A stretch of DNA of 64,000 nucleotides. Source: an uncultured Kofleriaceae bacterium (GTDB lineage: Bacteria > Myxococcota_A > Polyangia > Haliangiales > Haliangiaceae). Made by a program: the position numbers and the translations under genes. The stretch is from contig CAYUNM010000034.1 of assembly GCA_964446175.1 (NCBI GenBank), forward strand, positions 15,115-79,114, written 5' to 3'. Each line of letters starts with the position of its first letter. Position 1 is the first letter of the stretch. This document shows, one piece after another, positions 34,695 through 63,409 of this stretch. Below the pieces are notes generated by a model, which worked only from the letters and a program-made list of their open reading frames with translations, did not search any database and was not told where the DNA came from.

Positions 34695-36947
34695 CTACTT
34701 CCCCTTCTTCGCGTTCGGGTCGGGCTGCAGCTCGACCTTCTTCTCGAGGACGGCCTTCTTCTTCGCGGAGTCGATCGGCGTCGACGGATCGTTGTCGCGC
34801 CAGTCATTCTCCTTGAACTCGACGATCTCGGTCTTGAAGCCGGGCTTCACGACGGCGGCCGTGTAGTCGCGGCCCGCCCACAGGTTCTCGAAGTGCGCGT
34901 GGTTCGCGCCGATGAACAGCCACACGTCGGCATCGGCCGGCGACGAGTCGATGTGGACCTTGCCCGAGCCGACGATGCCCGTCGTGCCGAGCACGGCGCT
35001 CGTCGGCTGCAGCGGCAGCTCCGCCGGCTTGCCGGCCTTGCCGGGCTTGAGCGTGACGCTGAGCTTCGCGGCGAGCGACTTGCCGCTGCCGGTCCAGGTC
35101 GTGCCGTTGATCTGCGCCTCGGTCGGCTCGAAGCCGTCCTTGAGCAGCACGAGGTCGTGCTGCTGCGTCGCGGGCAGCGCGATCGGCACGTCGACGGGCG
35201 TCTTGCCGAGCTTGAGCCAGATGCCGGCCGCATCGGCGGTGATGTCGATCGCGCCCGGATCGGGCAGCGCTTCCTGCGCGGCCTTCGTCTTGTTCGCGGC
35301 CTCCTGCTCGGCACGCTCCTTCGCTTCCTTCGCGGCCTGCGCCTGCGCGTCGTCGGCGTGCAAGCGGTAGTAGATGCCGTAGCCGGCAGCGCCGAGGACG
35401 CCGAGGATCAGGATCGTGCCGATCACGCCGCGCAGCGGGCTCTTCAGCTTCGGCGCCGCGAGGTCCGTCATCTCGGGCATGTCGACGATCGGCGCCGCGC
35501 GCGGTGGAGTGCGCTTCGCGGGATTGCCGGTCTCGGCGCGCACGGCGGCGCGTTCGGCGCGCGCGGCGGCCTCCTCGAGCTTCGCGGCAGCCGCAGCCGC
35601 CTGCTCCGCGGCCGTCGAGACGCGCTTCGCGCCCTCGTCGAGCGAATCGATCGCGGCGAGTGCGGCCGCCTCATCGGTCGTGCCGCCGCGCATGCCGTTC
35701 GGGCTCGAGATGCGGCTCGGCGCGCGCAGCGGGAGCTCGCTCGACGACTCGCGGTGCGGCGACGGCGGCGGCAGCGGCGTCATGTCGTCGTCGGGATCGT
35801 CGAGCGACGGCACGCGTGCGCGCGACACGATCGCCTCGCGCTCGCGCGGGTCGTGCCGGATCAGCTCGCTGACCGGATCGCGCCGGAACGCCGACGGCGG
35901 CTCGGGATCGATGTGCGTCATCCCGGTGTCGTCGAGATCGTTGAGCAGCGAGCCGAGCCGGTCCGAGCCCGGGCGCGCCTTCTGGATCTTCTGCGCCTCG
36001 GCGCGCAGATCGAGGCTCGGCCGCGTGACCTGGATCGGACCGCCGCCGCCGAGCGACGCGAGCAGATCTTCGGTCGCGTCGTCGATGTTCGTGTCGCTGT
36101 GCGACAACCCCGCCTCGCGGATGAGCTCGCCACGATCCGCGAGCTCCCAGCGATCGTCCTCCATCGCCTCGAGCAGGTTCTCGAGCAGATCGCTGGCCGA
36201 CTTGTAGCGGCGCGACGTGTCGGTATCGAGCGCGCGCTGGACGAGCCGCTCGACGGCAGGCGTGACGCGCAGCGAGCCGGGCGGCACCTCGCCCGAGAGC
36301 ATCGTGAACAGCATCGCGCCGACGGCGAACACGTCGACGGCGGGCGTCGGATCCTCGCCGACGACGAGCTCGGGCGCGATGTAGCCGGTCAGCCCGCGCC
36401 ACAAGGACGAGTCCGCGCCCTGCGCGACCGCCTTCGTCAGCGCGTGGCCGACGATGAAGTCGGTCAGCCGCACGCCGCCGTCTTCGTCGATCAGCACGCT
36501 GCGCGGGTGCACGGCGCCGTGGATCACGCCCGCCTCGTGCGCGGCGGCGAGCGCCTCGATCACGCTGCGGCCGATCAGGCCCGCGATCGGCGTCGACAGC
36601 TTGCCGCCCTGCTTCGACTTCGCCTTGGCGGCCGTGATCAGGTCCTGCACGGTGACGTACCGCCCGACGCCGCGCGTGACGACGACGACATCGGGCCCGC
36701 CCGACTCGACGCCGACCGTCGGCACGATGTTCGGGTGCTCGAGCTTGGTCACCGTCGTGATCGTCTTCGCGTCGGTCAACGCGATGCGAAACGTGTCGTC
36801 TTCGAGGATCTTTGGATCGACGATCAGACCACGCAGGTTGCGCTGCCCCATGAACTGCGCGCGGTGAATCGCGCCATACATGGTGACGGCCAACCGCTCG
36901 CTGAGGACAACGCCGGCGATGATCTGCTCGGCCGCTTGGCCACCCAC
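34695..36947 (-). CDS. Membrane-spanning Ser/Thr pseudokinase with extracytoplasmic PEGA domains (start at GTG 36947 or ATG 36881)
   Basis: Kinase fold retained (LEHPNIV, YIAPE, RY.SA.DLL) but the Gly loop is absent, HRDLKPxN is replaced by HGAVHPRSV, and DFG by TDF. Then a TM helix (VIGTILILGVLGAAGYGIYY) and two PEGA-like modules. Confidence 0.75.
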   Translation of the reverse strand: MGGQAAEQIIAGVVLSERLAVTMYGAIHRAQFMGQRNLRGLIVDPKILEDDTFRIALTDAKTITTVTKLEHPNIVPTVGVESGGPDVVVVTRGVGRYVTVQDLITAAKAKSKQGGKLSTPIAGLIGRSVIEALAAAHEAGVIHGAVHPRSVLIDEDGGVRLTDFIVGHALTKAVAQGADSSLWRGLTGYIAPELVVGEDPTPAVDVFAVGAMLFTMLSGEVPPGSLRVTPAVERLVQRALDTDTSRRYKSASDLLENLLEAMEDDRWELADRGELIREAGLSHSDTNIDDATEDLLASLGGGGPIQVTRPSLDLRAEAQKIQKARPGSDRLGSLLNDLDDTGMTHIDPEPPSAFRRDPVSELIRHDPREREAIVSRARVPSLDDPDDDMTPLPPPSPHRESSSELPLRAPSRISSPNGMRGGTTDEAAALAAIDSLDEGAKRVSTAAEQAAAAAAKLEEAAARAERAAVRAETGNPAKRTPPRAAPIVDMPEMTDLAAPKLKSPLRGVIGTILILGVLGAAGYGIYYRLHADDAQAQAAKEAKERAEQEAANKTKAAQEALPDPGAIDITADAAGIWLKLGKTPVDVPIALPATQQHDLVLLKDGFEPTEAQINGTTWTGSGKSLAAKLSVTLKPGKAGKPAELPLQPTSAVLGTTGIVGSGKVHIDSSPADADVWLFIGANHAHFENLWAGRDYTAAVVKPGFKTEIVEFKENDWRDNDPSTPIDSAKKKAVLEKKVELQPDPNAKKGK

Positions 36948-36967
36948 GGAAGCGAAGATACCACGGC

Positions 36968-37819
36968 TCAGTAAGCAGTTAGCCGCATGTGGACCTCGAT
37001 CCACGGCTCGGCGAACAGGTAAAAGACCGCCGCCGCCGCGAGGTACGGCCCGAACGCGAGCTCGCTCGTCATCGAGCCCTCGCCCCGGCGCAAAAGCCGC
37101 ATGGTCTCGATGACGGTCCCGAGCATCGAGCCGCCGAACAGGGTCGCGAGCACGCCCTTCCACCCGAGCAGCGCGCCGACGAGCGCGAGCAGCTTCGCGT
37201 CGCCGAGCCCGAGGCCCTCGCGCTTGCGGATGCGGAAGTAGAGCTCGCCGATCAGCCACGGCAGCCCGTAGCCGATCGCGATCCCGACGAGGCCGTCGTA
37301 CCAGCGCCGCTCCGGCAGCAGGAACGTTGCCGCGTAGAAGATCGCGACCGATGGATACGTGACCTTGTCGAGGATGTACTTCGTGTCGAGGTCGATGAAC
37401 GTGATCACGATCATCACGAACACGAACGCCGCCATGATCACGAACCGGATCACGCGCAGCTGCATCGGCTCGAGCATCCCGGCCGGCCCGATGGTGAACC
37501 ACCACGCCACGCCGAACAGCGCGCCCGTGATCGCCTCGACGAGCAGGTAGCGCGCGGAGAACGGCGCCTTGCAGTTGCGGCACTTCCCGCGCAGCCACAG
37601 CCACGAGATCAGCGGGACGTTGTCGTACCACTTGATCGGCGCCTTGCAGGCGAAGCAGTGCGAGCCCGGCGCGACGACGGAGCGGCCCTTGGGAAACTCG
37701 TCGCTCGGCGCCCAGCGATAGATGCAGACGTTCGCGAAGCTGCCCCAGAGCAGGCCGAGGACGACGGCAAATGCATAGGCACCGGGCGTATCGGCCAGCG
37801 GCTCGAGCTCGGTGAGCAC
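36968..37819 (-). CDS. pilD: Prepilin peptidase (A24 family, PilD/GspO-type)
   Basis: Zn-finger-like CFACKAPIKWYDNVPLISWLWLRGKCRNCK, catalytic Asp contexts FIDLDTKY and GLGDAKLLA. Start inferred at GTG 37819. Confidence 0.85.
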   Translation of the reverse strand: MLTELEPLADTPGAYAFAVVLGLLWGSFANVCIYRWAPSDEFPKGRSVVAPGSHCFACKAPIKWYDNVPLISWLWLRGKCRNCKAPFSARYLLVEAITGALFGVAWWFTIGPAGMLEPMQLRVIRFVIMAAFVFVMIVITFIDLDTKYILDKVTYPSVAIFYAATFLLPERRWYDGLVGIAIGYGLPWLIGELYFRIRKREGLGLGDAKLLALVGALLGWKGVLATLFGGSMLGTVIETMRLLRRGEGSMTSELAFGPYLAAAAVFYLFAEPWIEVHMRLTAY

Positions 37820-37873
37820 GATGCAATTGTGCCGTGGTTGACCCGGCTCGTCGAGAAAGCTAAGACCTCCGGG

Positions 37874-38848
37874 ATGATCCGCTCCACCCTGCTTGCCACG
37901 CTGGCACTCGCCGCGTGCGGCCGCTCGCAGGGCGTCGAGGATCGCGATCTCGGCGGGCTCGTCGTCGCGCCGACGCATGAAGACAAGCCGATCCAGCTCG
38001 ATCGCGCGGCCAAGGATCCCGCGGAGCTGGGGCGCGCGCTGTCGGTGCCAAAGCGGCAGGTCGACGCGGCGCTCGGTGTCCACACGGTTGCCATCTCGAC
38101 GCAGACGACCGTCGAGGAGGCCGGCAAGCCCGTCTCCGACCTCCGCGACCACACGACGATCGAGCTCGGCGAGGCGGGCGCGTACCACGGCGTCTACACG
38201 AACTCGGCGGACTACGGACGCGAGGTGATCTTCGTCGGCGGCCAGCTCTACCTCGAGCCGCGCTACCAGCGCTGGCACCAGCGCGCGCCCGAGTCGCCCG
38301 AGGAGCCCGCGCAGATCGAGGACGACATGTACGGCGCGATCGCGGCGACGTGGGATCTGCTCGCGCCGGGCGCCGAGCTGACCGACCAGGGGCCCGCACA
38401 GGTCGGCGGGCGCGCCGGCCGCAAGATCGCGGTGAAGCTGTCTCCGTCTCCGAAGAAGCCTCCCGCCGAGAAGCTCGCTCAGCGCAAGTGGCGCGAGAAG
38501 CGGACGATCGATGCCGTCTCCGGCGAGGTCATCCTCGACGCCGAGAAGGGCGTGCCGCTCTCCGTGAAGCTGACGGGCACCGTCGGGTTCACGCGCGACA
38601 ACCGCCGGTTCTCGATGAAGATCACGCTGCAGAGCGAGGTCTCCGGAATCGGCGTCGCCGCGGCGGTGAAGGCCCCTGCCCCCGAAGACACCGTCGCGAC
38701 GCCGGAGCGGCTGCGCGAGGTCGATGACCGCGATTTCCTGCTCCAGGGCATCGCCCCGCCGCTGCGCAAGAACCCCGACGGCTCGCCGGTGACGCCCGCT
38801 CCTGCGGCTCCCGCCGCCGCCGGTTCTGCGTCAAACTCGGCTAAATGA
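37874..38848 (+). CDS. Lipoprotein, unknown function (324 aa)
   Basis: ATG at 37874. Lipobox LATLALAAC. No family recognised. Divergent from pilD. Confidence 0.6.
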   Translation: MIRSTLLATLALAACGRSQGVEDRDLGGLVVAPTHEDKPIQLDRAAKDPAELGRALSVPKRQVDAALGVHTVAISTQTTVEEAGKPVSDLRDHTTIELGEAGAYHGVYTNSADYGREVIFVGGQLYLEPRYQRWHQRAPESPEEPAQIEDDMYGAIAATWDLLAPGAELTDQGPAQVGGRAGRKIAVKLSPSPKKPPAEKLAQRKWREKRTIDAVSGEVILDAEKGVPLSVKLTGTVGFTRDNRRFSMKITLQSEVSGIGVAAAVKAPAPEDTVATPERLREVDDRDFLLQGIAPPLRKNPDGSPVTPAPAAPAAAGSASNSAK

Positions 38849-39712: not shown

Positions 39713-40800
39713 ATGACGGAGCGCGAGCAGCTACGCGCGAGCAAGCGCGTCGTCATCAAGATCGGCAGCCGGCTGCTCGCGGAGGCGCCCGCGAGCCGGC
39801 CCGCCGTGATCGCGGACCAGATCGTCGCGCTGCGTGCGAAGGGTATCGAGGTGCTCGTCGTGTCGTCGGGCGCGATCGCGCTCGGCATGCGGCGCCTCGG
39901 TCTCGCGGCGCGGCCGACGGAGATGCCGGCACTCCAGGCGGCCGCCGCCGTCGGGCAGTCGCGGCTGATGCAGCACTGGGAGCACGCGTTCGGCGCGCAC
40001 GAGGTCGAGATCGGGCAGGTCCTGCTGACGCACGACGACCTCGGGGATCGCCGGCGCTTCCTCTCGGCGCGGCTGACGCTGCGCGCGCTGCTCGATGCGC
40101 AGTGCGTGCCGATCATCAACGAGAACGACACGGTCGCGACCGAGGAGATCAAGTTCGGCGATAACGATCAGCTCGCCGCGCTCGTCTGCAACCTCGTCAG
40201 CGCGGACTGCCTCGTGATCCTCACCGACGTCGAGGGCGTGCGCGGCGCGGACGGCGTGCGGATGCCGATCGTGCGCGACATCGATCGCGAGGCGGTGCCC
40301 GTCGCGGGCGGCTCGACGAGCGGCGTCGGCTCGGGCGGCATGGCGAGCAAGGTCGGATCCGCGCGCATCGTCACGCGGACCGGCGTCGCGGCCGTGGTCG
40401 CCCCGGGGCGCGAGCCCGACGTGCTCGTGCGCGTGCTCGCCGGCGACGACCTCGGCACGCTGTTCGTGCCGGCGAGCAAGCTGTCGAGCCGCAAGCACTG
40501 GATCGCCTACGGCGCGAAGCCCGCCGGCAAGCTGACGATCGACGACGGCGCGGCTCGCGCGCTGCGCGACGGCGGCAAGTCCCTGCTCCCGGCCGGCATC
40601 GTTTCGGTCGACGGGGACTTCGAGCTCGGCGACACCGTGTCGATCCTGACTCGCGACGGTCACGAATTCGCCCGTGGTCTCGCGGCCTACGGTGGGGCGG
40701 ATCTGCGCAAGATCCAGGGCTTGCAATCCGCCGGCATCGAGGCCAGGCTGGGATACAAAGGCATCGACGAAGCAATCCACCGGGATGATCTCGTGATCTT

Positions 40801-40804
<4 letters not shown>
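39713..40804 (+). CDS. proB: Glutamate 5-kinase
   Basis: KRVVIKIGSRLL, VLVVSSGAIALG, NENDTV, and a C-terminal PUA domain. Confidence 0.93.
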
Positions 40805-42054
<1,250 letters not shown>

Positions 42055-42073
42055 GAGGGAGAGACGACAGGGA

Positions 42074-42559
42074 ATGACCAAAGCGAAGAAGCACGCCCCG
42101 CCCCAACCGCCCAAAGCGCGCGGCCGCGCCAACGAGACGCCCGACGCGACGCAGACGTCGACCGAAGGCCTCGACGGTGCGATGCGCGCGCTCGCGATCG
42201 CGCTGGACAAGAAGGCCCTCGAGCCGATCCTGCTCGACGTCCGCCAGCTGTGCTCGTTCTGCAACTACCAGCTGGTGCTGTCGGGCCGCTCGGACCGCCA
42301 GGTCGACGCGATCGCCGACGGCATCGAGCTCGCGCTCAAGCAAGAAGGCTTGCGCCCGATCTCGACGGAAGGCGCGCGCAGCGGCCAGTGGGCACTGCTC
42401 GACTACGGCGACTTCGTCGTGCACGTGTTCCTGCACTCGGCGCGCGAGCACTACGATCTCGAAGGCCTGTGGAACGATGCGCCGCGCGTGCCGATCGACG
42501 TGCCCGCCGAGGCGCGCGTGCCGGTCGACGATCAGTACGACGCGTCGTTCGTCTCGTGA
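42074..42559 (+). CDS. rsfS: Ribosome silencing factor RsfS (iojap-like) with an N-terminal basic extension
   Basis: ILLDVRQLCSFCNYQLVLSGRSDRQVDAIADGI...WALLDYGDFVVHVFLHSAREHYDLEGLW. Confidence 0.88.
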   Translation: MTKAKKHAPPQPPKARGRANETPDATQTSTEGLDGAMRALAIALDKKALEPILLDVRQLCSFCNYQLVLSGRSDRQVDAIADGIELALKQEGLRPISTEGARSGQWALLDYGDFVVHVFLHSAREHYDLEGLWNDAPRVPIDVPAEARVPVDDQYDASFVS

Positions 42560-52654: not shown

Positions 52655-55600
52655 GTGAAGCTCCAAACGATTTTCTTCCTCGCAGTTTCGATCGCGGTGG
52701 TGGGGTGCGGGGGCGACGGCAAGAAGGCGCCGACAGGGCCCGAGTGCTCGAACGGCGTCGACGATGACGGCGACGGGAAGATCGACTTCCCCGACGATCT
52801 CGGCTGCTCCAACGCCCAGGACGACAGCGAGGACAGCGCCCTGCTTCCGCAGTGCAACGACGGACGCGACAACGACGGCGACGGAAAGATCGACTATCCG
52901 AACGATCCCGGCTGCCTCGTCGCGCAGCAGGACAGCGAGACCGACGACTGTCCCGACGGGCCGGGTTGCCCGCAGTGCAGCAACGGCAAGGACGACGATG
53001 CGAACGGTCTGACCGACTATCCGAACGATCCCGGTTGCACGTCCGCCGGCGACTTCGACGAGTACACGCAGAACCCGAACGCGTGCGGCACCGGCATCAT
53101 GATCCATCAGCTGCCGCCCACCGGCATGGTGACCGCGATGGTCGACGGCATGCAGCTCTATCCGAACGTCTCGCCGTGCGGCGGCGGCGGCAGCAGCGGC
53201 ATCGACGTCGCCGCGTACGAGCTGCACCTCACCGAGCCGAAGGTGATCGTCGCGTCGACGGCGGGCTCGGCGATCGACACCGTGCTCGACATCCGCAGCG
53301 CGGCGTGCAGCGCGGCCGACTCCGAGCTCGCGTGCAATGACAACGACGGCAACCTCACCACGTCGAAGCTCGCGTACTCCGCGCAGCCGGGCACGTACTA
53401 CATCCTCGTCGAGACGAGGTCGGGCGTCGCCGGCAACTTCATGCTGACCGTGCAGCAGCTCGCCGGCGAAGGCACCGCGTGCACCGACAACAGCGAGTGC
53501 GGTCCCGGCCTCGTCTGCCGCATCCCGCACGGCGGCTCGACGATGTCGTGCGAGAAGCCCGTCTGCAACGACGGTCGCGACGACGACGGCGACGGCAAGA
53601 TGGACTACCCGAACGATCCGGGCTGCACGTCGGCCGACGACGACGACGAGACCGATGACTGCCCGAGCGGCCCCGGCTGCCCCGCGTGCGCGAATGGCGT
53701 GGACGACGACAACGACGGGATGACGGACTATCCGGCCGACACGTCGTGCACGAGCGCCTCGGGCAACAGCGAGGCGTGCCAGGGCGAAGAGGATCCGATC
53801 ACCGCGATCACCGCGGGGACGACCTCGGGAACGCTCGTCGGCGCGCACGACAACCACGACCCGACGTGCGGTGGTGACGGCGGCGGCGACATCCTCTACA
53901 CGCTCACCGTCCCGCCGATGCGCTCGCTCGTGCTCGACACCGAGGGCACGACCGGCGACACGCTGCTGTCGATCATGACGGCGACCTGCAGCGAGCCGAG
54001 CCTGGCGTGCGATGACGACGGCGGCACGTCGGGAAGCTCGTCGCGCCTCGCGCTGAGCAACCTCGCCGCCGGCACGTACATCGTCGCCGTCGACAACTAC
54101 AACGGCACGAAGCCGCCCGCGCCCTACGACCTGCACCTCACCGGCGTGATCCAGCCGGGCGGCAGCTGCAACCCCTCCGACACGCTCGGCGGCGCGCTGC
54201 AGTGCCCCGTCTCGAATCCGTGCTCCGGCACGACCGGCAACCTCAAGTGCCAGCCGAGCGCGTGCGGCGACGGCCAGGACAACGACGGCGACGGCAAGAC
54301 CGACTACCCCGACGATCCGGGCTGCGCGTCGGCCGACGACACCGACGAGTCCGACTCGTGCCCCGGCGCCGGCCCGAACTGCCCCGAGTGCGCCGACGGC
54401 GTCGACAACGACGGTGACGGCCAGATCGATTACCCGAACGACACGAACTGCACGTCGCCGGGCCAGGCGTCGGAAGGCTGCCCGTCGACGGACGGCGTCA
54501 CCGCGATCACGACCAGCGTGACGCAGGACTCGACGACCGGCGCGAACAACGACGTCCACCCGACGTGCAGCAGCAGCAGCGAGGCGGCGCCGGACCACAC
54601 GTTCAGCCTGCAGCTGCCGACGCTCAAGTCGCTGTCGATCGTGGGCTCGAACACGTGGGACGGCGTGCTGGCGCTCTACGACTCGACCTGCGGCGGCACG
54701 CCGCTGTCGTGTCAGGACGGCGAGAACATCTCGCTGCAGAACGTCACGGCCGGCAACTACTTCCTCGTCCTCGACGGCTACTCGACGGGATCGGGCGACT
54801 CGACGATCACCGTCAGCGGCGTGATCCAGAACGGCGGCAGCTGCGAATCGCCGCTCGCGCAGAACGGCGCGCTGACGTGCTCGACGGGCTTCGCCTGCGC
54901 CGGCACGCCCGGCTCGCGCACCTGCCGTCCCGCTGCCTGCAACGACGGCCACGATAACGACGGCGACGGCATCGCCGACTACCCGAACGATCCGGGCTGC
55001 GCCTCGATCAGCGACAACGACGAGTCCGACGCGTGCCCCGGCGGCGCGGGCTGCCCGGCGTGCAGCGATGGTCAGGACAACGACGGCGACGGCATGATCG
55101 ACTATCCGGATGATCCGAGCTGCGGCGCGGCATCGGGAACGTCGGAAGCCTGTGCCTCGAGCGAGCAGGTCATCGCGCTCGTCGCTCCGTCGACGCCCGG
55201 CACGACCGTCAACAGCGTGAATGACGTCATCCCGACGTGCGGCAGCTCGTCGAACACGGCTGGCGATCTCACGTACTCGCTCACCGTCCCCGCGCTGTCG
55301 AGCCTGACGATCACGAACACGAACTCGTTCGACGCGGCGGTCGAGCTGCTCGACTCGACGTGTGGCGGCGCGCCGCTGCAGTGCAAGGACGAGCCCGAGA
55401 CGATCCAGGTCGGGCCGCTCGATGCCGGCACGTACTACTACGTCATCGACGGCTACAGCTCGTCGACCGGTGCGTACACGATCGACGTCGCGGGCACGAT
55501 CAAGAACGGCGCGAGCTGCGAGGGCACGCTCGCCGATACCGGCGCGCTGACCTGCGGCGCGGGCTACGCGTGCAAGGGCGTCGCGGGCGCGCGCACGTGC

Positions 55601-56290
55601 CAGCCCCTCCAGTGCGCCGATGGCATGGACAACGATGGCGACGGCAAGATCGACTTCCCGTTCGAGCCGGGCTGCGATTCGCCCTCGGACGACGACGAGA
55701 CCGATCCCGCCACCGCTTCGGTGTGCTCGAACGGCGCCGACGACGACAACGACATGGCGACCGACTTCCCGGCCGACTACGGCTGCTCGTCGGCGGCCGG
55801 CACGAGCGAGGTCTTCTGCGCGCCGGAGATGAACCCGACCGCGCTGATCACGACGACGCCGGTGACCGGCACCACCGCCGGCCTGACGAGCGAGTTCGCG
55901 AGCCACAGCTGCCAGTCGAGCTCGAGCGGCGCGGACACCGTCCTCGCACTCCAGCTGCCCGTCGCGGTCGACACGCTCGTCCTCGACCTGTCGAACTCGA
56001 GCTACGACACCGTGCTCAGCGTCCGCGACCTGACGTGCGGCACGCAGCTCGCCTGCGACGATGACAGCGGCGACCCCGGCTCGCAGTCCAAGCTGACGAT
56101 GACGGCGGTGGCGGCTGGCACGTACGCGGTCGTCATCGACGGCTACAGCGGGAGCTCGGGCGCGTACACGCTGGCGGTCCACGGCACGCTCGGGGCGGGC
56201 ACGCGCTGCGACTCGCCGCTCGTCACGTCGGGCGTGCTCGCCTGCGCGACCGGCCTGACCTGCTCGGGATCGCCGGCGACCTGTCGCTGA
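52655..56290 (+). CDS. Giant modular lipoprotein: 5 super-modules of MopE-type Cys/Asp metal-binding motifs + PPC-like beta-sandwich + small Cys-knot segment
   Basis: GTG start. Lipobox IAVVGCGG. 11 copies of C.(N/D)G.D(D/N)D.(D/N)G..D(Y/F)P.D..C. 5 copies of a GTY..V.DGYS...G.Y...V.G segment, each followed by GG.C......GAL.C..G..C. Confidence 0.8.
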   Translation: MKLQTIFFLAVSIAVVGCGGDGKKAPTGPECSNGVDDDGDGKIDFPDDLGCSNAQDDSEDSALLPQCNDGRDNDGDGKIDYPNDPGCLVAQQDSETDDCPDGPGCPQCSNGKDDDANGLTDYPNDPGCTSAGDFDEYTQNPNACGTGIMIHQLPPTGMVTAMVDGMQLYPNVSPCGGGGSSGIDVAAYELHLTEPKVIVASTAGSAIDTVLDIRSAACSAADSELACNDNDGNLTTSKLAYSAQPGTYYILVETRSGVAGNFMLTVQQLAGEGTACTDNSECGPGLVCRIPHGGSTMSCEKPVCNDGRDDDGDGKMDYPNDPGCTSADDDDETDDCPSGPGCPACANGVDDDNDGMTDYPADTSCTSASGNSEACQGEEDPITAITAGTTSGTLVGAHDNHDPTCGGDGGGDILYTLTVPPMRSLVLDTEGTTGDTLLSIMTATCSEPSLACDDDGGTSGSSSRLALSNLAAGTYIVAVDNYNGTKPPAPYDLHLTGVIQPGGSCNPSDTLGGALQCPVSNPCSGTTGNLKCQPSACGDGQDNDGDGKTDYPDDPGCASADDTDESDSCPGAGPNCPECADGVDNDGDGQIDYPNDTNCTSPGQASEGCPSTDGVTAITTSVTQDSTTGANNDVHPTCSSSSEAAPDHTFSLQLPTLKSLSIVGSNTWDGVLALYDSTCGGTPLSCQDGENISLQNVTAGNYFLVLDGYSTGSGDSTITVSGVIQNGGSCESPLAQNGALTCSTGFACAGTPGSRTCRPAACNDGHDNDGDGIADYPNDPGCASISDNDESDACPGGAGCPACSDGQDNDGDGMIDYPDDPSCGAASGTSEACASSEQVIALVAPSTPGTTVNSVNDVIPTCGSSSNTAGDLTYSLTVPALSSLTITNTNSFDAAVELLDSTCGGAPLQCKDEPETIQVGPLDAGTYYYVIDGYSSSTGAYTIDVAGTIKNGASCEGTLADTGALTCGAGYACKGVAGARTCQPLQCADGMDNDGDGKIDFPFEPGCDSPSDDDETDPATASVCSNGADDDNDMATDFPADYGCSSAAGTSEVFCAPEMNPTALITTTPVTGTTAGLTSEFASHSCQSSSSGADTVLALQLPVAVDTLVLDLSNSSYDTVLSVRDLTCGTQLACDDDSGDPGSQSKLTMTAVAAGTYAVVIDGYSGSSGAYTLAVHGTLGAGTRCDSPLVTSGVLACATGLTCSGSPATCR

Positions 56291-57119
56291 CTCGAGCCTG
56301 CGGCACGCCGGTGACGAGCACGTAGTTCTTGCCCGTCACGAAGACCTGCATGTGGTGCTGCTGCAGGTACTTCCGGTAGAACGCGACGTCCTTGATCACG
56401 AGGCCGAGCTCCGGCTCGGTGAAGTTGACCATGCGCGCGCCGTACTCGATCTCGCCGTCGATGTAGCGGCAGTTCGGCCAGCCGAAGATCACGGCGCCGC
56501 CCAGTGCGAGCAGCTCCTGCACGACGGTGCGGACGAGAGCGCGATCGTCGAGTGCGCCGCTCTGCAAGAGGCCCACCGACATCACGAGATCGAAGCGCCC
56601 GAGCGCGGGCAGCGCCGTGACATCGGCCTCGACGAACGTCGCCTCGGGCACGCGTTCGCGCGCGAGGGCGAGCGCCGCCGCGCTGCGGTCCACGCCGACG
56701 CGCTCGCCACCGACCAGCGTCAATAGCTCGCCCGTGCCGCAGCCGAGGTCGAGCACGCGCGCCCGCGGCCCCACGCGCGCGAGCGCCGCCTGCAGATCGA
56801 GCACGAGCGGCTCCTCCAGCTTCGAGGGCAGCTGCGCGTAGTCGCCGCTCCAGCGACGCTCGCGATCGAGGCGCTCGAACGACAGCTCGACGAGCGGTCC
56901 GTGCGCGCGCGGCGTGCGCATGCGAAGGCCGAGCCGCTCCGCGACATCGAGCCACGTGCGCCACGGGCGATGTACGAACATCTCGCCGTCGACCTCGACG
57001 AGCTCGCCCGCATAGCGCCCCGCGCCACGGTCGGGATCGAGTACGGAAAACCGAATCTCCGACTGATTCGCGATCCAGCTCACGATTCTTACGAGAGGCT
57101 CTCGTCGGAACACGGTCAC
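56223..57119 (-). CDS. Class I SAM-dependent methyltransferase
   Basis: VLDLGCGTGELL (motif I) and DLVMSVGLLQ. GTG start at 57119 (alternative at 57113). The 3' end overlaps the convergent giant lipoprotein gene by 68 nt. Confidence 0.7.
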   Translation of the reverse strand: MTVFRREPLVRIVSWIANQSEIRFSVLDPDRGAGRYAGELVEVDGEMFVHRPWRTWLDVAERLGLRMRTPRAHGPLVELSFERLDRERRWSGDYAQLPSKLEEPLVLDLQAALARVGPRARVLDLGCGTGELLTLVGGERVGVDRSAAALALARERVPEATFVEADVTALPALGRFDLVMSVGLLQSGALDDRALVRTVVQELLALGGAVIFGWPNCRYIDGEIEYGARMVNFTEPELGLVIKDVAFYRKYLQQHHMQVFVTGKNYVLVTGVPQARVSDRSPAIPSRSGRSRRRARPT

Positions 57120-57167
57120 GTGCCAACGATACGCGTGTATCCTGGGAACTGTCGCCGAGCTGCACGC

Positions 57168-59999
57168 ATGGAGCGCGACCCTCACGACGAGCCGACGGAG
57201 ACGGTAGTCGACGGACAGCGCAGGCACGACAAGCGCCGCCCGACGGAAGAGGTGCACGCGCAGCCGACGCTGCTCGGCCGCTACGTCGTCCTCGGCGAGC
57301 TCGGCCGCGGCGGCATGTCGGTCGTGTACGCCGCCTACGATCCCGAGCTCGATCGCCGGGTCGCGCTCAAGGTCGTGCGCGCCGATCAGCTCTCGGCCAC
57401 GCATCGCGCGCGCCTGCACCGCGAAGCACAAGCGCTCGCGCGCCTCTCGCACCCCAACGTCGTCACCGTGTTCGACGTCGGCGACCTCTCGAGCGACACG
57501 TTCGTCGCGATGGAGCTCGTCGACGGCCAGAGCCTGCGCGACTGGAACCGCCAGCCGCGCACGTGGCGCGAGGTCGTCAAGGTCGTGCTCGCCGCGGGTC
57601 GCGGGCTCGCGGCCGCGCACGCCGCCGGCATCGTCCACCGCGACGTCAAGCCCGACAACATCATGCTGGCGCCGAACGGCGCCGTGAAGCTCGTCGACTT
57701 CGGCCTCGCGCGCGACCTCGGCGATCGCACGATGGACTCCGGCGAGGTGTTCTCCGAGGACCCCGTGATGCCGCCGGAGGAGTCGAGCCTGTCGATGCCG
57801 AGCCAGAGCGGCTCGATGCGGCTGGGCAAGCCGCTCGAGGCGATCACGCAGCACGGCTACATCGTCGGCACGCCGGCCTACATGCCGCCCGAGCAGCGCA
57901 GCAAGAAGCCGGAGGCCGACGAGCGCTCGGACCAGTTCAGCCTGTGCGCGACGCTCTACGAGGCGCTCTACAAGCAGCGCCCGTTCACGACGTCGAAGAA
58001 GGAAGTGATCGATCGCCGCGAGCTCGTGACGATCGCCGACAAGCCCGGCACCGACACGCGCACGCTCGCCGCCGCCCCGCCGAAGGATTCCGGCGTGCCG
58101 ACCTGGCTGCAGAAGGTCGTCGCGCGCGGGCTCGCCGTCGATCCGAAGCAGCGCTACCCGAGCGTCGAGGCGCTGCTGCGCGAGCTCGAGCGCGATCCTG
58201 CTCGCACGATGCGGCTCGTCGCGGGCGCGTCCGCCGCGCTCGTCGCGGTCGCCGCCGTGGCCACGCTCGTCACCTACAAGATGATGCCGGCACACACGCA
58301 GGCTCCGAGCTGCGGCACCGGCGCCGATCGCATCGCGAAGACGTGGAACGCCGACAAGCGCGCGCAGCTCGTCTCCGCTGCCACGTCGCGCGGCGGGGCG
58401 CCCGCGGCCTCCGCGATCGGCGTGTTCGCGACGCGCGTCGAAGACTACGCCGATCACTGGCAGCAGATGTTTCACGAGAGCTGCGAGGCGACGCAGGTCC
58501 ATCACACGCAGTCCGCCGAGGCGATGGACCTGCGCATGGCCTGCCTCGATCGCCGGCTGGCCGAGCTCGGCGCGCTCGTCGACGTCATGCACGACGCCAG
58601 CCCTGCCGTCCTGCGCAAGGCCGGCGAGGTGGTCGACGGCCTGCCCCCGCTCACCGAGTGCGCCGACCTCAAGGCCCTGCGCGAGGTCGTCAAGCGCCCG
58701 ACCGACCCGGTCATCGCGAAGCGCCTCGACGCGATCGACGGCGATCTGGCCCGCCTCACGGCGCTCTACGCCGTCGGCGACATGAACAAGACGCTCGCGC
58801 TCGCCGACACCGTCATCGACGAGGCGCGCGCCGCCGGCTACGCCCCGCAGCTCGCCGAGTCGCTGTACTGGCGCGGCCGCGCGATCGCCGACCGCGACGG
58901 CGGCCCCGACGCGATCGCGATGTTCGATCAGACGTTCTCCGCCGCGCTCGGCGCCGGCCAGGACCAGCGCGCCGCCGATGCCGCCGCCCGCATCGCCCAG
59001 GAAGCACTCTGGGCCGCCCAGCTCCCCGAGTTCGAGCGCTGGGCCCGCATCTCCCACGCGCTCGCCGCCCGCTCGGGCGCCGCGCCCGTCACGCGCTTCG
59101 TCGATCAGCTCTCGTGCATGTCGAACCACTACTACGGCAAGGTCCGCACGCGCCTGACCTGCCTCCGCGACCTCGCCGCGCGCAAGGACGGCCAGCCGAA
59201 CGAGTGGCTCGTCACGACCCTCGGCATCGCGGCCACCGAGGCCGGCGAGCCCGCCGAGGCGATCCACTGGCTCGAGCAAGGCGTCGAGCTCGCGCGCGCG
59301 GAGAACGGCGCCGATCATCCACGCACGCTCGAGATGCGCGCGTACCTCTGCAAGGGGCTCTTCGAGCTCGGCGACTACGACCGCGCCGCCGGCGAGTGTC
59401 GCGACGCGCTCGCGCGCCTGCAGCGCATCGCCCCCGACGACACCGCGCTCGTCGCGCGCCTCCAGGACTACCTCGCCGATGCCGACGTGGCGCTCCACCA
59501 TCCCGACGAGGCGCGCCCGCTCTACGAGGCCGCGATGCAGACCGGCGACGACGAGATCAAGCTCGACGCGAAGAGCGCGCTCTCCGAGCTCGCCGGCAAG
59601 AAGGGCGACGCCACCGCCGCCGTCGCCGAGCACCGCGAAGCGCTCGCCGAGACGATCAAGGCGTTCGCCGCCTACAACCCGCACCACCCGAACATCCTCG
59701 CCGAGCACTACGAGCTCGGCAAAGCGCTCCTCGCCCAGGGCGACGCCAAGGCCGCCCTCGCCGAGCTCACGCGCGCCGACGAGGATGCCGACCCGACCGA
59801 GTCATCGCCGCTCGCGCTCGCCCAGACCCGCTACGCGCGCGCGCAGGCGCTCGTCAGGGCGAAGGGCGCGCCGGCGACGGACCAGGCACGCGCGCTCGCG
59901 CAATCGGCGCTCGACCTCTACCGCGACCACGCGCCCGACACCGCGCGCTTCCGCGACGAGCGCGATGCGATCGCGAAGTGGCTCGCGTCATTGAAATAG
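57168..59999 (+). CDS. Ser/Thr protein kinase - TM helix - long TPR/helical-repeat domain (943 aa)
   Basis: GRGGMSVVY, VALKVV, HRDVKPDN, DFG, GTPAYMPPEQ, TM helix LVAGASAALVAVAAVATLV, then about 600 aa of TPR-like repeats. Confidence 0.88.
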   Translation: MERDPHDEPTETVVDGQRRHDKRRPTEEVHAQPTLLGRYVVLGELGRGGMSVVYAAYDPELDRRVALKVVRADQLSATHRARLHREAQALARLSHPNVVTVFDVGDLSSDTFVAMELVDGQSLRDWNRQPRTWREVVKVVLAAGRGLAAAHAAGIVHRDVKPDNIMLAPNGAVKLVDFGLARDLGDRTMDSGEVFSEDPVMPPEESSLSMPSQSGSMRLGKPLEAITQHGYIVGTPAYMPPEQRSKKPEADERSDQFSLCATLYEALYKQRPFTTSKKEVIDRRELVTIADKPGTDTRTLAAAPPKDSGVPTWLQKVVARGLAVDPKQRYPSVEALLRELERDPARTMRLVAGASAALVAVAAVATLVTYKMMPAHTQAPSCGTGADRIAKTWNADKRAQLVSAATSRGGAPAASAIGVFATRVEDYADHWQQMFHESCEATQVHHTQSAEAMDLRMACLDRRLAELGALVDVMHDASPAVLRKAGEVVDGLPPLTECADLKALREVVKRPTDPVIAKRLDAIDGDLARLTALYAVGDMNKTLALADTVIDEARAAGYAPQLAESLYWRGRAIADRDGGPDAIAMFDQTFSAALGAGQDQRAADAAARIAQEALWAAQLPEFERWARISHALAARSGAAPVTRFVDQLSCMSNHYYGKVRTRLTCLRDLAARKDGQPNEWLVTTLGIAATEAGEPAEAIHWLEQGVELARAENGADHPRTLEMRAYLCKGLFELGDYDRAAGECRDALARLQRIAPDDTALVARLQDYLADADVALHHPDEARPLYEAAMQTGDDEIKLDAKSALSELAGKKGDATAAVAEHREALAETIKAFAAYNPHHPNILAEHYELGKALLAQGDAKAALAELTRADEDADPTESSPLALAQTRYARAQALVRAKGAPATDQARALAQSALDLYRDHAPDTARFRDERDAIAKWLASLK

Positions 60000-62792
60000 C
60001 ATCAGGTGGCTCGCCCAGTCGCCGTGCGCGGCACGTACCTCCGCGAGCGCCTGCGCGATCGGCGTACCGGCTGCGATGCGGCGGTGCAGATCGTCGAACA
60101 CCGCGCGCGCCTGCGCATCGGGAATCTCGACATCGGCCGCGATCACCGCGCGCGCACCGGCCGCGAGGAACGCGTCCGGCAGGCTCCAGCGCTCGCGCTG
60201 CAGCGGTGCGACCTGCGCGGCGCGACACGCCGCGAGCACGACGACCGGCGCGCCCGCGAAGTGCGCCTTGCGGAGCGCACCCGCGCGCAGCGCGTACACG
60301 CCCGACGGCTCCGGCGAGAGCGCGAGATACGCGGCATCGGTGTGGGTGGCCGCCGCGATGCCATGCACGTCGAGCTCGGCATACGTCGCGTCGCCGAGCG
60401 CGGCGAGCACGCGCGCCGGTGTCGCGTCGGCGCCGGCGAGCGTCGCATCGAAGGACACGGCCGGCGCGGCCATCGCCGGCAGGTGCGGAAGGCTGGCATC
60501 CGGCGGCCGCGCATCGACGACCTGGATCGCGCGCTTGACCGGCGCGGGCAGCACGCCGCGCGCCTGCGAATCGCCGGCGAACCACCACGGCAGGTTTGCC
60601 GGCAGCAGGTCGCCGCGACCGTGCAGCGGCGGGCGCGCGATCACCGCGACCCCCGTGCAGTGCGCGAGGTGAGCGACGAGCGAGCTCGAGACCACCGGGG
60701 CGGCCGCGAGCTGGCCCGTCTCGCCGAACACGCCGTCGGGCGTGCGCGCCGCCACCGTCAGGCGATCGTCGTCGGCGCTCGCCGCCAGCATGCACGGCGC
60801 GGCCGCGATCGGATGCTCCTCCACCGCGAGCGCGAGCACGCGATCCCACTGCTGGTGCGTGCCCGCATCGGTGATCAGCGTCGCGAACGCGTAGGTGCGG
60901 AGGCCCTGTGCGGTCGCGTCGGAAAGAGAGAGCGTCGCGACGCGATCGTGGAGCGCCGCGATCTGTGCCCCATCGATGCGCGCCGCGCCGATCAGCGCGA
61001 GCACGTCGTCGTGGGCATCGCGCGCCGCCGCGATCCAGGCCTCGGCGCGCTCGCGGTCGTGCGCATCGCCCGAGAGCCTCGCGAGATCGATCGCGGTGGC
61101 AAAGCCGATCGGATCGACCGCCGCGCAGCACGGATCGACCGGCGCCGGCAGCAGCGCGCGCGCGGCCGCGAGGTCGCGTGCGGCGAACGCGACGTTCGCG
61201 CGGCTGATCTGCGCATACCGCGAGAGCCGCGGATCGCGGTCTCCGACCTCGGCGATCACCTCTTCGAGCTCGGCGCGAGCGAGGGCAAAGCGCCCGTGGC
61301 GGCGGTGGATGTCCGCGAGCAGCGCGCGCGCGTTCGCGACGAGCATCGGCATCGCGGCCCGTCGCTGATCGTCGACGGCAGCGCGCGCGTGGGCCTCCGC
61401 CTCGCTGTCGCGACCGGTCGCGAACAGCAGCTGCGCGAGGTCCTGCTCGAGCCCTCCGCAGCGCATCGCCCATGCCGCGTTGCCGCACGCCGCGAGTGCA
61501 TGCACGAGCGCGGGCTCCGCACGCAGATCCGAATCCGGGAATGCCTTGCGGATCCGCTCGCGCTCGCCGAACAAGTCGAACCACGGGTCGTGCCACGGCG
61601 CGCTGATCGCGCGCAGCTTGTCGAGCCGCGCGGCCGCCTGCCCCGCGAGGATCGCGGCGCCGACGTAGAGATCCGCCGCCGCCGGGCCCGCCGCTTCGAG
61701 CTGCGCGACGAGCGACGCGGTGCGCTCCGCCGGCAGCGTGTGCGCGACGAGCGCGCGATAATCGTCGACGAAGCGCGCGCGCACCGCGAAGTCGCTGGCC
61801 GCCACGCGATCGGCGGCTGCCGTCGCCGTCGTCGTGCCGCTCTCCGCGTCGAGCGCCTTCGCGAGCGGCCGCAACCGCTCGACCTCGTCGCGCGACCGCG
61901 CCGTGCGCAGCGCATCGTAGAACGCCACACGCGCGTACGCCGGATACTCGGCCGCGCGCGCCGCATCGACAACCGCACCACCGGCGATCATCGTCGCGCA
62001 GTCCTGCTGGAATGCCGCGAACCCGCGCGCCCGCGCGAGCCACGGATCGGCGGCGGCGAGCGTGCGCGCATCGGCGCTCCAGCCCGGCTCGCCGGCCGCT
62101 GCCACCCGCTCGAACGCCTGCGCAGCGACATACGGCAGCCCGAGGTCGCGCGCGGCGAGCCCGAGGTTCCACGCGCCCGCCGGCGTCGTCGAGGCTGCAT
62201 ACGCATGCCCGAGCGCGCGCTCGGGATCGCCGGCGATCAGCGCGAGCGCGGCGCGATCGGCTTCCGCCCTCGGATCCGCGGGCAGCTTCGCCGCGATGTC
62301 CTCCGCGCGCGCGATATCGCCGCTCGACGCGAGTGCCGCGACCAGGTCGCGCCGATCATCGCGCTTCTCGAGGTTCGCGAGCACGCCGAGCGCGATCGGC
62401 TCGCGCGCGTGAACATCGCCGCGCACGACCGCACGCGGCCGGTACGGCACGAACAGCTCGCCGGAGAATCGCGCCTCGACGGCGCGCTCGTGCGGCAGCT
62501 CGATCGCGACCTGCGGTGCCGGTTCGTGCGGGCGCCGCCCGAGCCACAGCGCGATCGCCGCCGCCGCCGCCACCGCCGCACCACCGGCGGCGAGCCACCA
62601 GCGCCGTCCGGAACGCACGACCGCCGCGACCTTCGGCGCGCGCGAGGCCGCCGCATCGAGCGAGACCGCCGCACCGAGCAGCGACTGACACTCCGCGCAC
62701 TGCGCCAGGTGCGCGAGCACGTCGGCGTGCTCGGCCTCGGGCAGCTCGCCGTCGAAGTACGCCGAGGTCCTCGCCAGATGGTCATCCGCCAT
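59988..62792 (-). CDS. Anti-sigma factor (zf-HC2) - TM helix - TPR-like region - C-terminal CHAT protease domain (934 aa)
   Basis: N-terminal FDGELPEAEHADVLAHLAQCAECQ (H-x3-C-x2-C). TM helix WWLAAGGAAVAAAAAIALWL. C-terminal CHAT pattern: AELDVHGIA (His), PVVVLAACRAAQ (Cys), LPDAFLAAGARAVIAADVEIPD. 11-nt overlap with the ECF sigma gene. Confidence 0.8.
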   Translation of the reverse strand: MADDHLARTSAYFDGELPEAEHADVLAHLAQCAECQSLLGAAVSLDAAASRAPKVAAVVRSGRRWWLAAGGAAVAAAAAIALWLGRRPHEPAPQVAIELPHERAVEARFSGELFVPYRPRAVVRGDVHAREPIALGVLANLEKRDDRRDLVAALASSGDIARAEDIAAKLPADPRAEADRAALALIAGDPERALGHAYAASTTPAGAWNLGLAARDLGLPYVAAQAFERVAAAGEPGWSADARTLAAADPWLARARGFAAFQQDCATMIAGGAVVDAARAAEYPAYARVAFYDALRTARSRDEVERLRPLAKALDAESGTTTATAAADRVAASDFAVRARFVDDYRALVAHTLPAERTASLVAQLEAAGPAAADLYVGAAILAGQAAARLDKLRAISAPWHDPWFDLFGERERIRKAFPDSDLRAEPALVHALAACGNAAWAMRCGGLEQDLAQLLFATGRDSEAEAHARAAVDDQRRAAMPMLVANARALLADIHRRHGRFALARAELEEVIAEVGDRDPRLSRYAQISRANVAFAARDLAAARALLPAPVDPCCAAVDPIGFATAIDLARLSGDAHDRERAEAWIAAARDAHDDVLALIGAARIDGAQIAALHDRVATLSLSDATAQGLRTYAFATLITDAGTHQQWDRVLALAVEEHPIAAAPCMLAASADDDRLTVAARTPDGVFGETGQLAAAPVVSSSLVAHLAHCTGVAVIARPPLHGRGDLLPANLPWWFAGDSQARGVLPAPVKRAIQVVDARPPDASLPHLPAMAAPAVSFDATLAGADATPARVLAALGDATYAELDVHGIAAATHTDAAYLALSPEPSGVYALRAGALRKAHFAGAPVVVLAACRAAQVAPLQRERWSLPDAFLAAGARAVIAADVEIPDAQARAVFDDLHRRIAAGTPIAQALAEVRAAHGDWASHLMLFQ

Positions 62793-63342
62793 GGCGGCAC
62801 CTCGCGATCAGCAGGTCACGGAGCTTCGTGCGCGCACGCAGCACGCGCGTCCCGACGGTCGCCTTCGCGATGCCGAGCGCGGCCGCGATCTCGTCGTAGG
62901 ACTTGCCGTCGAACGCGAACATCTCGAACGTCACGCGCTGCTCGTCGGGGAGCTGCGCGAGCTCGGCGCGAATGTGCTCGGCGGTCAGCGCCAGCCACCA
63001 CGCCTCCTCCTCGGCCACCGGCGCGGCGGCATCGACGAGCTCCTCCTCGCGGCGCGTCGCCCGGCGGCGCACCCAGTCGATGAACTTGTTGTGCATCACA
63101 CGCGACAGCCACGCGCGCTCGTCGGCTCCCGTGGGGATCGGCGACCGCAGCGTGCTCACGAGTACTTCCTGCACCAGATCCTCGGCATCGAAATGGCCCC
63201 GACACAGCTTGCGCGCCAGGCCCTCGAGATACGGGCGATGAGCGCGCGTCAACTGCTCGATCTCACGGGTCTTGCGGGCGTCCTCCATCGATATGACGGA
63301 AGGCTCGGGCGTTTCTTCCCGTACTAGAGACCGCTTGGACAT
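62782..63342 (-). CDS. ECF (sigma-70 family, group IV) RNA polymerase sigma factor
   Basis: Region 2 (DAEDLVQEVLV, WLSRVMHNKFIDWVRRR) and region 4 (LPDEQRVTFEMFAFDGKSYDEIAAALGIAKATVGTRVLRARTKL). ATG at 63342. Confidence 0.88.
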   Translation of the reverse strand: MSKRSLVREETPEPSVISMEDARKTREIEQLTRAHRPYLEGLARKLCRGHFDAEDLVQEVLVSTLRSPIPTGADERAWLSRVMHNKFIDWVRRRATRREEELVDAAAPVAEEEAWWLALTAEHIRAELAQLPDEQRVTFEMFAFDGKSYDEIAAALGIAKATVGTRVLRARTKLRDLLIARCRHGG

Positions 63343-63409
63343 GGGGCCGGAAGATCGGGCGCCCACCGCGTCTGAGAAGCGCCAGGTCCCACCATAAACC
63401 AAGGAGCGG

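Follow-up and report, generated by a model that had tools for sequence, protein, structure and literature searches.

A transmembrane anti-sigma factor with a C-terminal caspase-like CHAT domain and a sigma factor of the extracytoplasmic function (ECF) type are encoded by two coupled genes in a 64-kb stretch of DNA from an uncultured Kofleriaceae bacterium (contig CAYUNM010000034.1), which was analyzed over its whole length and is called the window here. The anti-sigma factor is a member of the DdvA family, and the two genes form a DdvS/DdvA-type pair from a high-GC myxobacterium. Fusion of an anti-sigma factor to a CHAT domain is already known from DdvA, and what the window protein adds is a new, distantly related member of that family, not a new type of system. 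An earlier sequence-only reading of the window had been aware of no characterized anti-sigma-CHAT protein. This was mistaken, as DdvA and DdvS of Myxococcus xanthus were described genetically in 2018 in Nucleic Acids Research, in a paper that already noted DdvA-like pairs in several Myxococcota (PMC6061681), and the structures of the DdvA-DdvS dimer by cryo-electron microscopy (PDB 8ROT) and of the N-terminal domain by nuclear magnetic resonance (NMR) followed in 2024 in Science Advances (PMC11506125).

DdvA (chain 8ROT_B) was the sole sequence match of the window protein in the PDB (E 2.4e-51, aa 9-921 against 9-972), and a profile built from 52 homologues matched DdvA with E 1.6e-240. An AlphaFold2 (AF2) model of the anti-sigma factor, built from the same number of homologues, reached a mean predicted local distance difference test score (pLDDT) of 90.1 and a predicted template modeling score (pTM) of 0.84. 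The top Foldseek matches of this model were 8ROT_A and 8RW5 (E 4.2e-34 for 8ROT_A, template modeling score 0.67-0.72, about 900 columns, 26% identity), and the next ones, separases and the craspase component Csx29, appeared only at E of about 1e-6 to 1e-7. As modeled, the scaffold-TPR-CHAT part has a fold like that of 8ROT. No sequence-level match to craspase or separase was obtained with the family profile.

DdvA is a single-pass anti-sigma factor with a cytoplasmic zinc-binding domain of ~70 residues and a periplasmic TPR-CHAT region of ~900 residues, and DdvS is the ECF sigma factor translationally coupled to it (PMC6061681). The zinc center of DdvA consists of C6/H28/C32/C35 and the catalytic dyad of H862/C907, the zinc-binding anti-sigma (ZAS) domain binds both sigma2 and sigma4, and the active site of each protomer has the linker Q95-S143 of the other one opposite to it (PMC11506125).

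The gene for the window anti-sigma factor encodes 934 aa, starting with MADDHLARTSAYFDGEL. It is a conserved gene and not a chance open reading frame (ORF); 65 homologues were found, most of them full length, with 28-71% identity to the window protein and one identical copy. The GC content at its third codon positions (GC3) is 0.88, matching the other real genes in the window (70% GC). The reading from sequence had taken this ORF for a fusion of an anti-sigma factor with a CHAT domain carrying an intact His/Cys dyad, and profile searches bore this out. Both Pfam models scored above their cut-offs, zf-HC2 (PF13490) at aa 10-36 with 32.4 bits against 22.2, and CHAT (PF12770) at aa 783-921 with 54 bits against 24, the latter spanning profile positions 123-264 of 289 and therefore covering only the C-terminal half of the domain at the sequence level.

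Residue conservation was counted over the 52 aligned homologues. The predicted zinc site of the ZAS domain has the motif H28-x3-C32-x2-C35, all three residues being kept in 51 of the 52 proteins and carrying the same residue numbers as the zinc ligands of DdvA (PMC11506125). The first ligand is Cys6 in DdvA versus His5 in the window protein, which therefore has a predicted HHCC variant of the site, not CHCC; most of the clade has Cys4 and His6 in this region, versus His5 only in the window protein. Three helices (H3-13, H19-31, and H33-51) make up the domain in the AF2 model, and the family profile also matched the N-terminal NMR entry of DdvA (8RLZ), RsiW, and 3HUG_B. A redox-switch reading of the RsrA kind was rejected, the RsrA model scoring 20.8 bits against a cut-off of 62.5.

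A single transmembrane helix had been proposed and was predicted here, too, at aa 66-85, the top hydropathy window of the protein and the only hydrophobic segment left unpacked in the AF2 model, where it forms a lone helix (H73-86). The net charge of its flanks is +5 over 15 aa on the N-terminal side and 0 on the C-terminal side, and a topology with the N terminus inside and the C terminus outside is therefore predicted. The helix aligns with that of DdvA, so that both the charge bias and the DdvA structure predict a periplasmic C terminus, in line with the extracytoplasmic CHAT domain of the sequence-only reading. Two cysteines of the C-terminal part, Cys667 and Cys712, are invariant, DdvA orthologues included, and each of Cys436, Cys445, and Cys555 is shared by 49 of the 52 homologues; these conserved cysteines fit with an oxidizing compartment for the C-terminal part.

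The juxtamembrane linker that follows the helix is partly disordered in the AF2 model, with pLDDT values under 50 for aa 87-91 and 93-95 that give way to high values from about aa 101. Its arginines R103, R108, and R118 are invariant and are present in DdvA orthologues, too. The long helical-repeat region expected from the sequence was recovered as an all-helical segment of ~525 aa (aa 135-659) in the AF2 model, and positions 151-239 of the family profile match TPR proteins. The CHAT region comprises 14 beta strands and 6 helices in 275 aa, a strand count as in DdvA, and has no large insertions relative to DdvA in the alignment. None of the 52 homologues departs from the dyad residues His810 and Cys856, and the residues aligned with them in a 991-aa DdvA orthologue (P0064) are H862/C907, so the dyad is neither absent nor misaligned.

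The sigma gene matches Sigma70_r2 (48.5 bits), Sigma70_r4_2 (54 bits), and the sigma70-ECF model TIGR02937 (81 bits, cut-off 42.9), and its product is, as judged from these matches, an ECF (group IV) sigma factor with sigma2 and sigma4 domains only. The 11-nt overlap between the two genes that had been noted earlier is exact, the sigma stop codon TGA lying at 62784..62782 and the anti-sigma ATG at 62792..62790. Related loci were surveyed with one genome per species, 80 of 98 encoding stretches being kept. A survey of co-occurrence, proposed along with the initial annotation, found a sigma homologue in 64 of 81 related loci, and among those listed it was directly upstream of the anti-sigma gene in most.

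Two starts are available for the sigma gene. The shorter version of 168 aa (ATG 63288) is the one called on an identical public contig. The longer start, ATG 63342, lies 23 nt upstream of a promoter-like motif and is kept in 6 loci, with GTG in its place in locus L007. No Shine-Dalgarno sequence precedes it; the codons that follow (MSKR) vary synonymously between loci, which suggests that they are translated. The promoter may sit within coding sequence; alternatively, translation would begin at 63288, the shorter and almost leaderless start.

This motif is one of two copies of GGAAGA-N14/15-CGTC, the only matches in the 64-kb window, where 0.35 were expected. Both lie between the sigma gene and a gene for a small lipoprotein, in divergent orientation and 30 bp apart. 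Conservation of the sigma-side copy was followed in the 13 closest loci with a divergent lipoprotein gene, that is, 12 loci of the Kofleriaceae/Haliangiales clade and the window, and it was kept in 10 of them. It lies 6 nt upstream of ATG 63288 and is made of GAA/GAT codons, which are rare in these genomes. Its -35-like element contains rare GAA/GAT as well as CTA/GTA codons. The lipoprotein-side copy starts 64 to 76 nt before the ATG in 7 of 12 lipoprotein-bearing loci, counting the window, and an eighth locus (L013), the start of which was probably miscalled, has it at -35; an AAGGAG Shine-Dalgarno sequence follows it in about half of the loci, again including the window. From their arrangement and conservation, the two motifs qualify as a candidate pair of bidirectional ECF promoters that differs from the DdvS pattern GTAA-N16-CGT. 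The DdvS pattern itself was rejected as the promoter of the window sigma factor, having only two matches (14756 and 54411), far from the sigma gene and at chance level. As a positive control, it occurred exactly three times in the island of a DdvA orthologue, 35-55 nt upstream of the expected genes.

The small lipoprotein is, by sequence comparison across loci, a conserved third gene of the module. It had no Pfam match. Its homologues have in common a lipobox and a second Cys, a core rich in beta structure, and a proline run at the C terminus, and the family counts 90 representatives among 1.84 billion proteins. The gene is divergent from the sigma gene in 12-13 loci of the clade and lies directly downstream of the anti-sigma gene in other clades. 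With a hidden Markov model (HMM) of the lipoprotein family, a member adjoining the family anti-sigma gene was detected in 31 of 81 loci and none elsewhere in the 10-kb flanks. A 138-aa protein encoded downstream of a ddvA orthologue (L082, 13025..13441) matched this HMM weakly, with 28 bits, and has no signal peptide in its called form. The AF2 model of the lipoprotein has a mean pLDDT of 66, with ~77-92 at aa 41-110 and 63-79 at aa 111-140, and its fold had no PDB match better than E 0.24. The features of the module are listed in Table 1.

Table 1. Positions of the sigma/anti-sigma pair, its domains and dyad codons, the promoter-like motifs, and the small lipoprotein gene in the window.
Feature	Position	Strand	Basis and remarks
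DdvA-family transmembrane anti-sigma factor, 934 aa	59988..62792	-	ORF; stop codon 59988..59990; Pfam zf-HC2 and CHAT
ZAS domain, predicted cytoplasmic, aa 1-51	62640..62792	-	Pfam, conserved ligands, AF2 helices
Single transmembrane helix, aa 66-85, WLAAGGAAVAAAAAIALWLG	62538..62597	-	Hydropathy maximum; aligns with DdvA transmembrane helix W71-L92
Juxtamembrane linker, aa 86-134, candidate site-1 cleavage region	62391..62537	-	Aligns with DdvA linker Q95-S143
Predicted periplasmic helical scaffold and TPR-like superhelix, aa 135-659	60816..62390	-	AF2; aligns with DdvA scaffold/TPR
CHAT (caspase-like) domain, aa 660-934	59991..60815	-	Pfam; AF2 mixed alpha/beta
His810 codon	60363..60365	-	Catalytic dyad position; context AELDVHG
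Cys856 codon	60225..60227	-	Catalytic dyad position; context VVLAAC
ECF sigma factor	62782..63342	-	Sigma70_r2, r4_2, TIGR02937; ATG 63288 (168 aa) or ATG 63342 (186 aa)
ECF-type promoter-like motif GGAAGA-N15-CGTC, towards sigma gene	63295..63319	-	Inside the longer candidate sigma ORF
ECF-type promoter-like motif GGAAGA-N14-CGTC, towards lipoprotein gene	63349..63372	+	Starts 64 nt before ATG 63413
Small lipoprotein, 158 aa	63413..63889	+	Lipobox LVGC; C-terminal RPPPPPPP-x-G-x-GW; divergent from sigma gene

The best explanation of the window pair is a transfer of the mechanism modeled for DdvA, which we hold with somewhat more belief than doubt. The N-terminal zinc-binding domain would keep the ECF sigma factor in an inactive state at the inner membrane, as expected by homology with DdvA, for which binding was shown. 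The anti-sigma factor is probably a dimer, and its single membrane crossing would place the scaffold-TPR-CHAT module in the periplasm, where it would block RseP. The trigger would come from the periplasm, probably as a protein that binds to the TPR, and would activate the resting His810/Cys856 site; the dyad, once active, would then cleave the partner protomer's juxtamembrane linker, as a site-1 protease that is part of the anti-sigma factor. The cut would expose the stub to the site-2 protease RseP, and the sigma factor would be freed. Judging from motif conservation, the freed sigma factor would most likely transcribe from GGAAGA-N14/15-CGTC its own operon and the divergent lipoprotein gene. 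The output of the pair would be local in this genome, and, unlike for DdvA, nothing was found linking it to phage defense.

Self-cleavage-driven sigma release, or else proteolysis of periplasmic targets, had been suggested from the sequence. The suggestion is reasonable and close to the published model, and to that extent it is not original; it is still a hypothesis. According to the DdvA authors, signal-induced autoproteolysis by the CHAT domain in trans would be the site-1 step, which they themselves call unproven, and truncated DdvA is degraded in an RseP-dependent manner, the TPR-CHAT domain blocking RseP (PMC11506125). CHAT-mediated cleavage is hypothetical for all family members, DdvA included.

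Several points weigh against the transferred mechanism. The H862A and C907A variants of DdvA still repressed ddvS in M. xanthus, no cleavage of DdvA was seen during infection with phage Mx4, and the CHAT domain of DdvA, which lacks the three-helix motif of separase and craspase and is in a resting geometry, was described as having an incomplete active site (PMC11506125). The identity to DdvA and DdvS is low (26-29% and 33%) and the promoter motif is different, so details may not transfer. The autoregulation step is uncertain, since the sigma-side motif lies inside the longer, apparently translated sigma ORF.

The CHAT domain might instead act on, or be controlled by, a separate periplasmic protein, for which the co-conserved lipoprotein is the best candidate; this is unlikely but credible enough to be weighed with care. 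The lipoprotein could serve as substrate or, in the manner of securin, as pseudosubstrate or inhibitor, its loss or binding determining the state of the sensor, with sigma release as the consequence. TPR modules usually bind peptides or proteins. A partner of this kind is consistent with the recurrence of one lipoprotein family beside the pair and nowhere else in the flanks, with the 28-bit score of the 138-aa protein downstream of the ddvA orthologue, and with the same ECF-type promoter motif at the lipoprotein gene; separase, a structural relative, is under pseudosubstrate control (PMC11506125). However, gene context makes the lipoprotein an interaction candidate only, 50 of the 81 loci have no detectable member, and the homologue in the DdvA operon, without a signal peptide as called, is a poor fit to a periplasmic partner. 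Furthermore, confidence in the core of the lipoprotein model is only moderate, and no structural match to the model was obtained.

The DdvA family as a whole may be viewed, tentatively and with far more doubt than belief, as a three-part module of sigma factor, TPR-CHAT anti-sigma factor, and small partner, the last of which would turn on the CHAT site as its ligand, inhibitor, or substrate in the periplasm. In this clade the partner may then be the lipoprotein, and in M. xanthus the "protein of unknown function" encoded downstream of ddvA. If the three-part view is true, the trigger and substrate of the DdvA protease become directly testable outside a defense context.

It is distinctly doubtful that the CHAT domain is catalytically silent, with the periplasmic module serving as a ligand sensor and steric block of RseP and a separate site-1 protease acting as for RseA or RsiW. 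Such an arrangement would agree with the behavior of the DdvA dyad mutants, which were like the wild type in unstimulated cells, with the lack of observed autoproteolysis, with the resting geometry and missing three-helix motif of the DdvA active site, and with the truncations showing that TPR-CHAT blocks RseP (PMC11506125). On the other hand, without catalysis it is difficult to account for the invariance of His and Cys in 52 of 52 homologues at 28-71% identity, conserved protease genes are lacking beside the pair, and the S41 and M16-like peptidase genes of the window, 9-17 kb off, have no counterparts in the 81 loci. Taken with the three invariant linker arginines, conservation of the dyad over this range of identity argues, at the level of sequence, for real protease activity.

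The homologues nearest to the window protein (38-52% identity) belong to Kofleriaceae, Haliangiales, and "Myxococcales" metagenome-assembled genomes, the best match among GTDB representatives being 52% identical. Other relatives were found in Myxococcus, Corallococcus, Pyxidicoccus, Archangium, Cystobacter, and Hyalangium, often in several copies per genome, and one related record is labeled Comamonas. This distribution agrees with that given for the DdvA family (PMC11506125). DdvA-family pairs occur as tandem duplicates in three of the loci (L030, L046, and L060) and in many Myxococcaceae loci, with the second copy ~4.7 kb downstream, and several unlinked copies per genome are present in Myxococcus, Corallococcus, and Pyxidicoccus.

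Defense genes were sought among the 43 proteins of the window. The PADLOC matches listed were all to generic Ser/Thr kinase models and concerned at most three window proteins, and the 25 best-populated Pfam families listed included no proteins of a cyclic-oligonucleotide-based antiphage signaling system (CBASS) or Cas proteins; housekeeping families were listed (NADH dehydrogenase, Hsp70, secretin, proA, and rsfS). The island of the true DdvA orthologue encodes SMODS, CHAT-SAVED, C25-like peptidase, Cap2, and JAB proteins, and tblastn with the SMODS, CHAT-SAVED, Cap2, JAB, and C25 proteins of the island detected no homologue in the window or in the 81 loci. No sequence sign of DdvS-type control of an adjoining CBASS and type III-B CRISPR-Cas through GTAA-N16-CGT was found in the window. 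Regulation of anti-phage defense by the pair, as by DdvA/DdvS, with target genes outside the window is accordingly very improbable, even though the pair belongs to the DdvA family and the window reaches only ~0.6 kb past the sigma gene, for besides these negative results and the DdvS pattern not being found at the window sigma gene, only a subset of DdvA-like pairs lies near defense systems according to the DdvA authors (PMC11506125).

The three window kinases with PADLOC matches (models PD-T4-6, mad6, MkoA, and Stk2) are most likely ordinary myxobacterial kinases rather than defense genes. A Ser/Thr kinase with a C-terminal TPR (1032 aa, 56901..59999, plus strand) is convergent with the anti-sigma gene and overlaps its 3' end by 12 nt, in a neighborhood that related loci do not share. 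This convergent kinase and the PPC-repeat protein were considered as further parts of the module and were rejected, as they recur only sporadically in related loci. A TPR protein, the M16-like peptidase, an LCM methyltransferase, and a glyoxalase, as well as the S41 peptidase as a dedicated site-1 protease, were rejected, too, as they do not recur there.

The genes proA (Aldedh) and rsfS (40789..42559, plus strand) lie 17-20 kb from the pair and are convergent with it. An Archangium genome (L082, 21730..22976) has proA and rsfS at a distance of ~9 kb from its ddvS-ddvA island, with the relative orientation unchanged, and the common placement could be a remnant of a shared position or a coincidence. 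A secreted protein of 1211 aa (52655..56290, plus strand) with a lipoprotein-type signal peptide contains many Cys-rich repeats of the form C-x-D/N-G-x-D-D/N-D-G-D-G-x-x-D-Y/F-P-x-D-P-G-C, which alternate with PPC and galactose-binding-like domains. Two same-strand ORFs (34695..37859 and 36968..38830, minus strand), both with high GC3, overlap by ~890 nt, for which a frameshift, an error in sequencing, or a wrongly called boundary could be responsible.

The fusion itself is not new and opens no new category, and the value of the window pair is comparative. It extends the DdvA design to a distant Kofleriaceae/Haliangiales clade without a link to phage defense. Modest additions are the small partner protein and the clade-specific promoter motif that accompany the pair, and the conserved features offer concrete candidates for what triggers the CHAT domain of DdvA and for its substrate.

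In comparison to the known systems, DdvA/DdvS (MXAN_7288/7289; PDB 8ROT, 8RW5, and 8RLZ) is the closest, being collinear with the window protein over its full length. Common to both are the H28/C32/C35 ZAS domain, one transmembrane helix, the linker with three arginines, the scaffold, the TPR, and the CHAT dyad, together with an upstream coupled ECF sigma factor, a host from Myxococcota, and a related small protein adjoining. In contrast to this shared plan, identity is only ~26-29% between the window anti-sigma factor and DdvA and 33% between the window sigma factor and a DdvS orthologue, GGAAGA-N14/15-CGTC takes the place of GTAA-N16-CGT as promoter motif, the CBASS and CRISPR-Cas neighbors of DdvA were not found beside the window pair, and the gene for the small partner, a lipoprotein here, is divergent and upstream, whereas at ddvA it is downstream.

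Craspase, the type III-E Cas7-11 with the TPR-CHAT protein Csx29 that cleaves the putative anti-sigma factor Csx30, is a structural relative (PMC11506125), in which a TPR-CHAT module and the freeing of a sigma factor from an anti-sigma-like protein are likewise linked functionally. Craspase differs in being cytoplasmic, monomeric, and RNA-activated and in acting in trans on a separate protein, whereas in the window protein the CHAT domain is fused to the anti-sigma factor, on the predicted periplasmic side, with no CRISPR partner and no sequence-level match. Separase with securin is alike in that a CHAT/caspase domain comes after a TPR-like superhelix (Foldseek E of about 2e-7) and that the protease is restrained until a signal arrives, but separase is eukaryotic, cytoplasmic or nuclear, much larger, and monomeric, with template modeling scores to the window model of only 0.2-0.3. 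Classical regulated intramembrane proteolysis (RseA/DegS/RseP and RsiW/PrsW/RasP) shares the single-pass anti-sigma factor with a cytoplasmic sigma-binding domain, which in the window protein resembles that of RsiW, and the rule that the periplasmic part must go before the site-2 protease acts. The classical systems rely on a separate site-1 protease and have small periplasmic domains, whereas the window anti-sigma factor carries the candidate protease itself.

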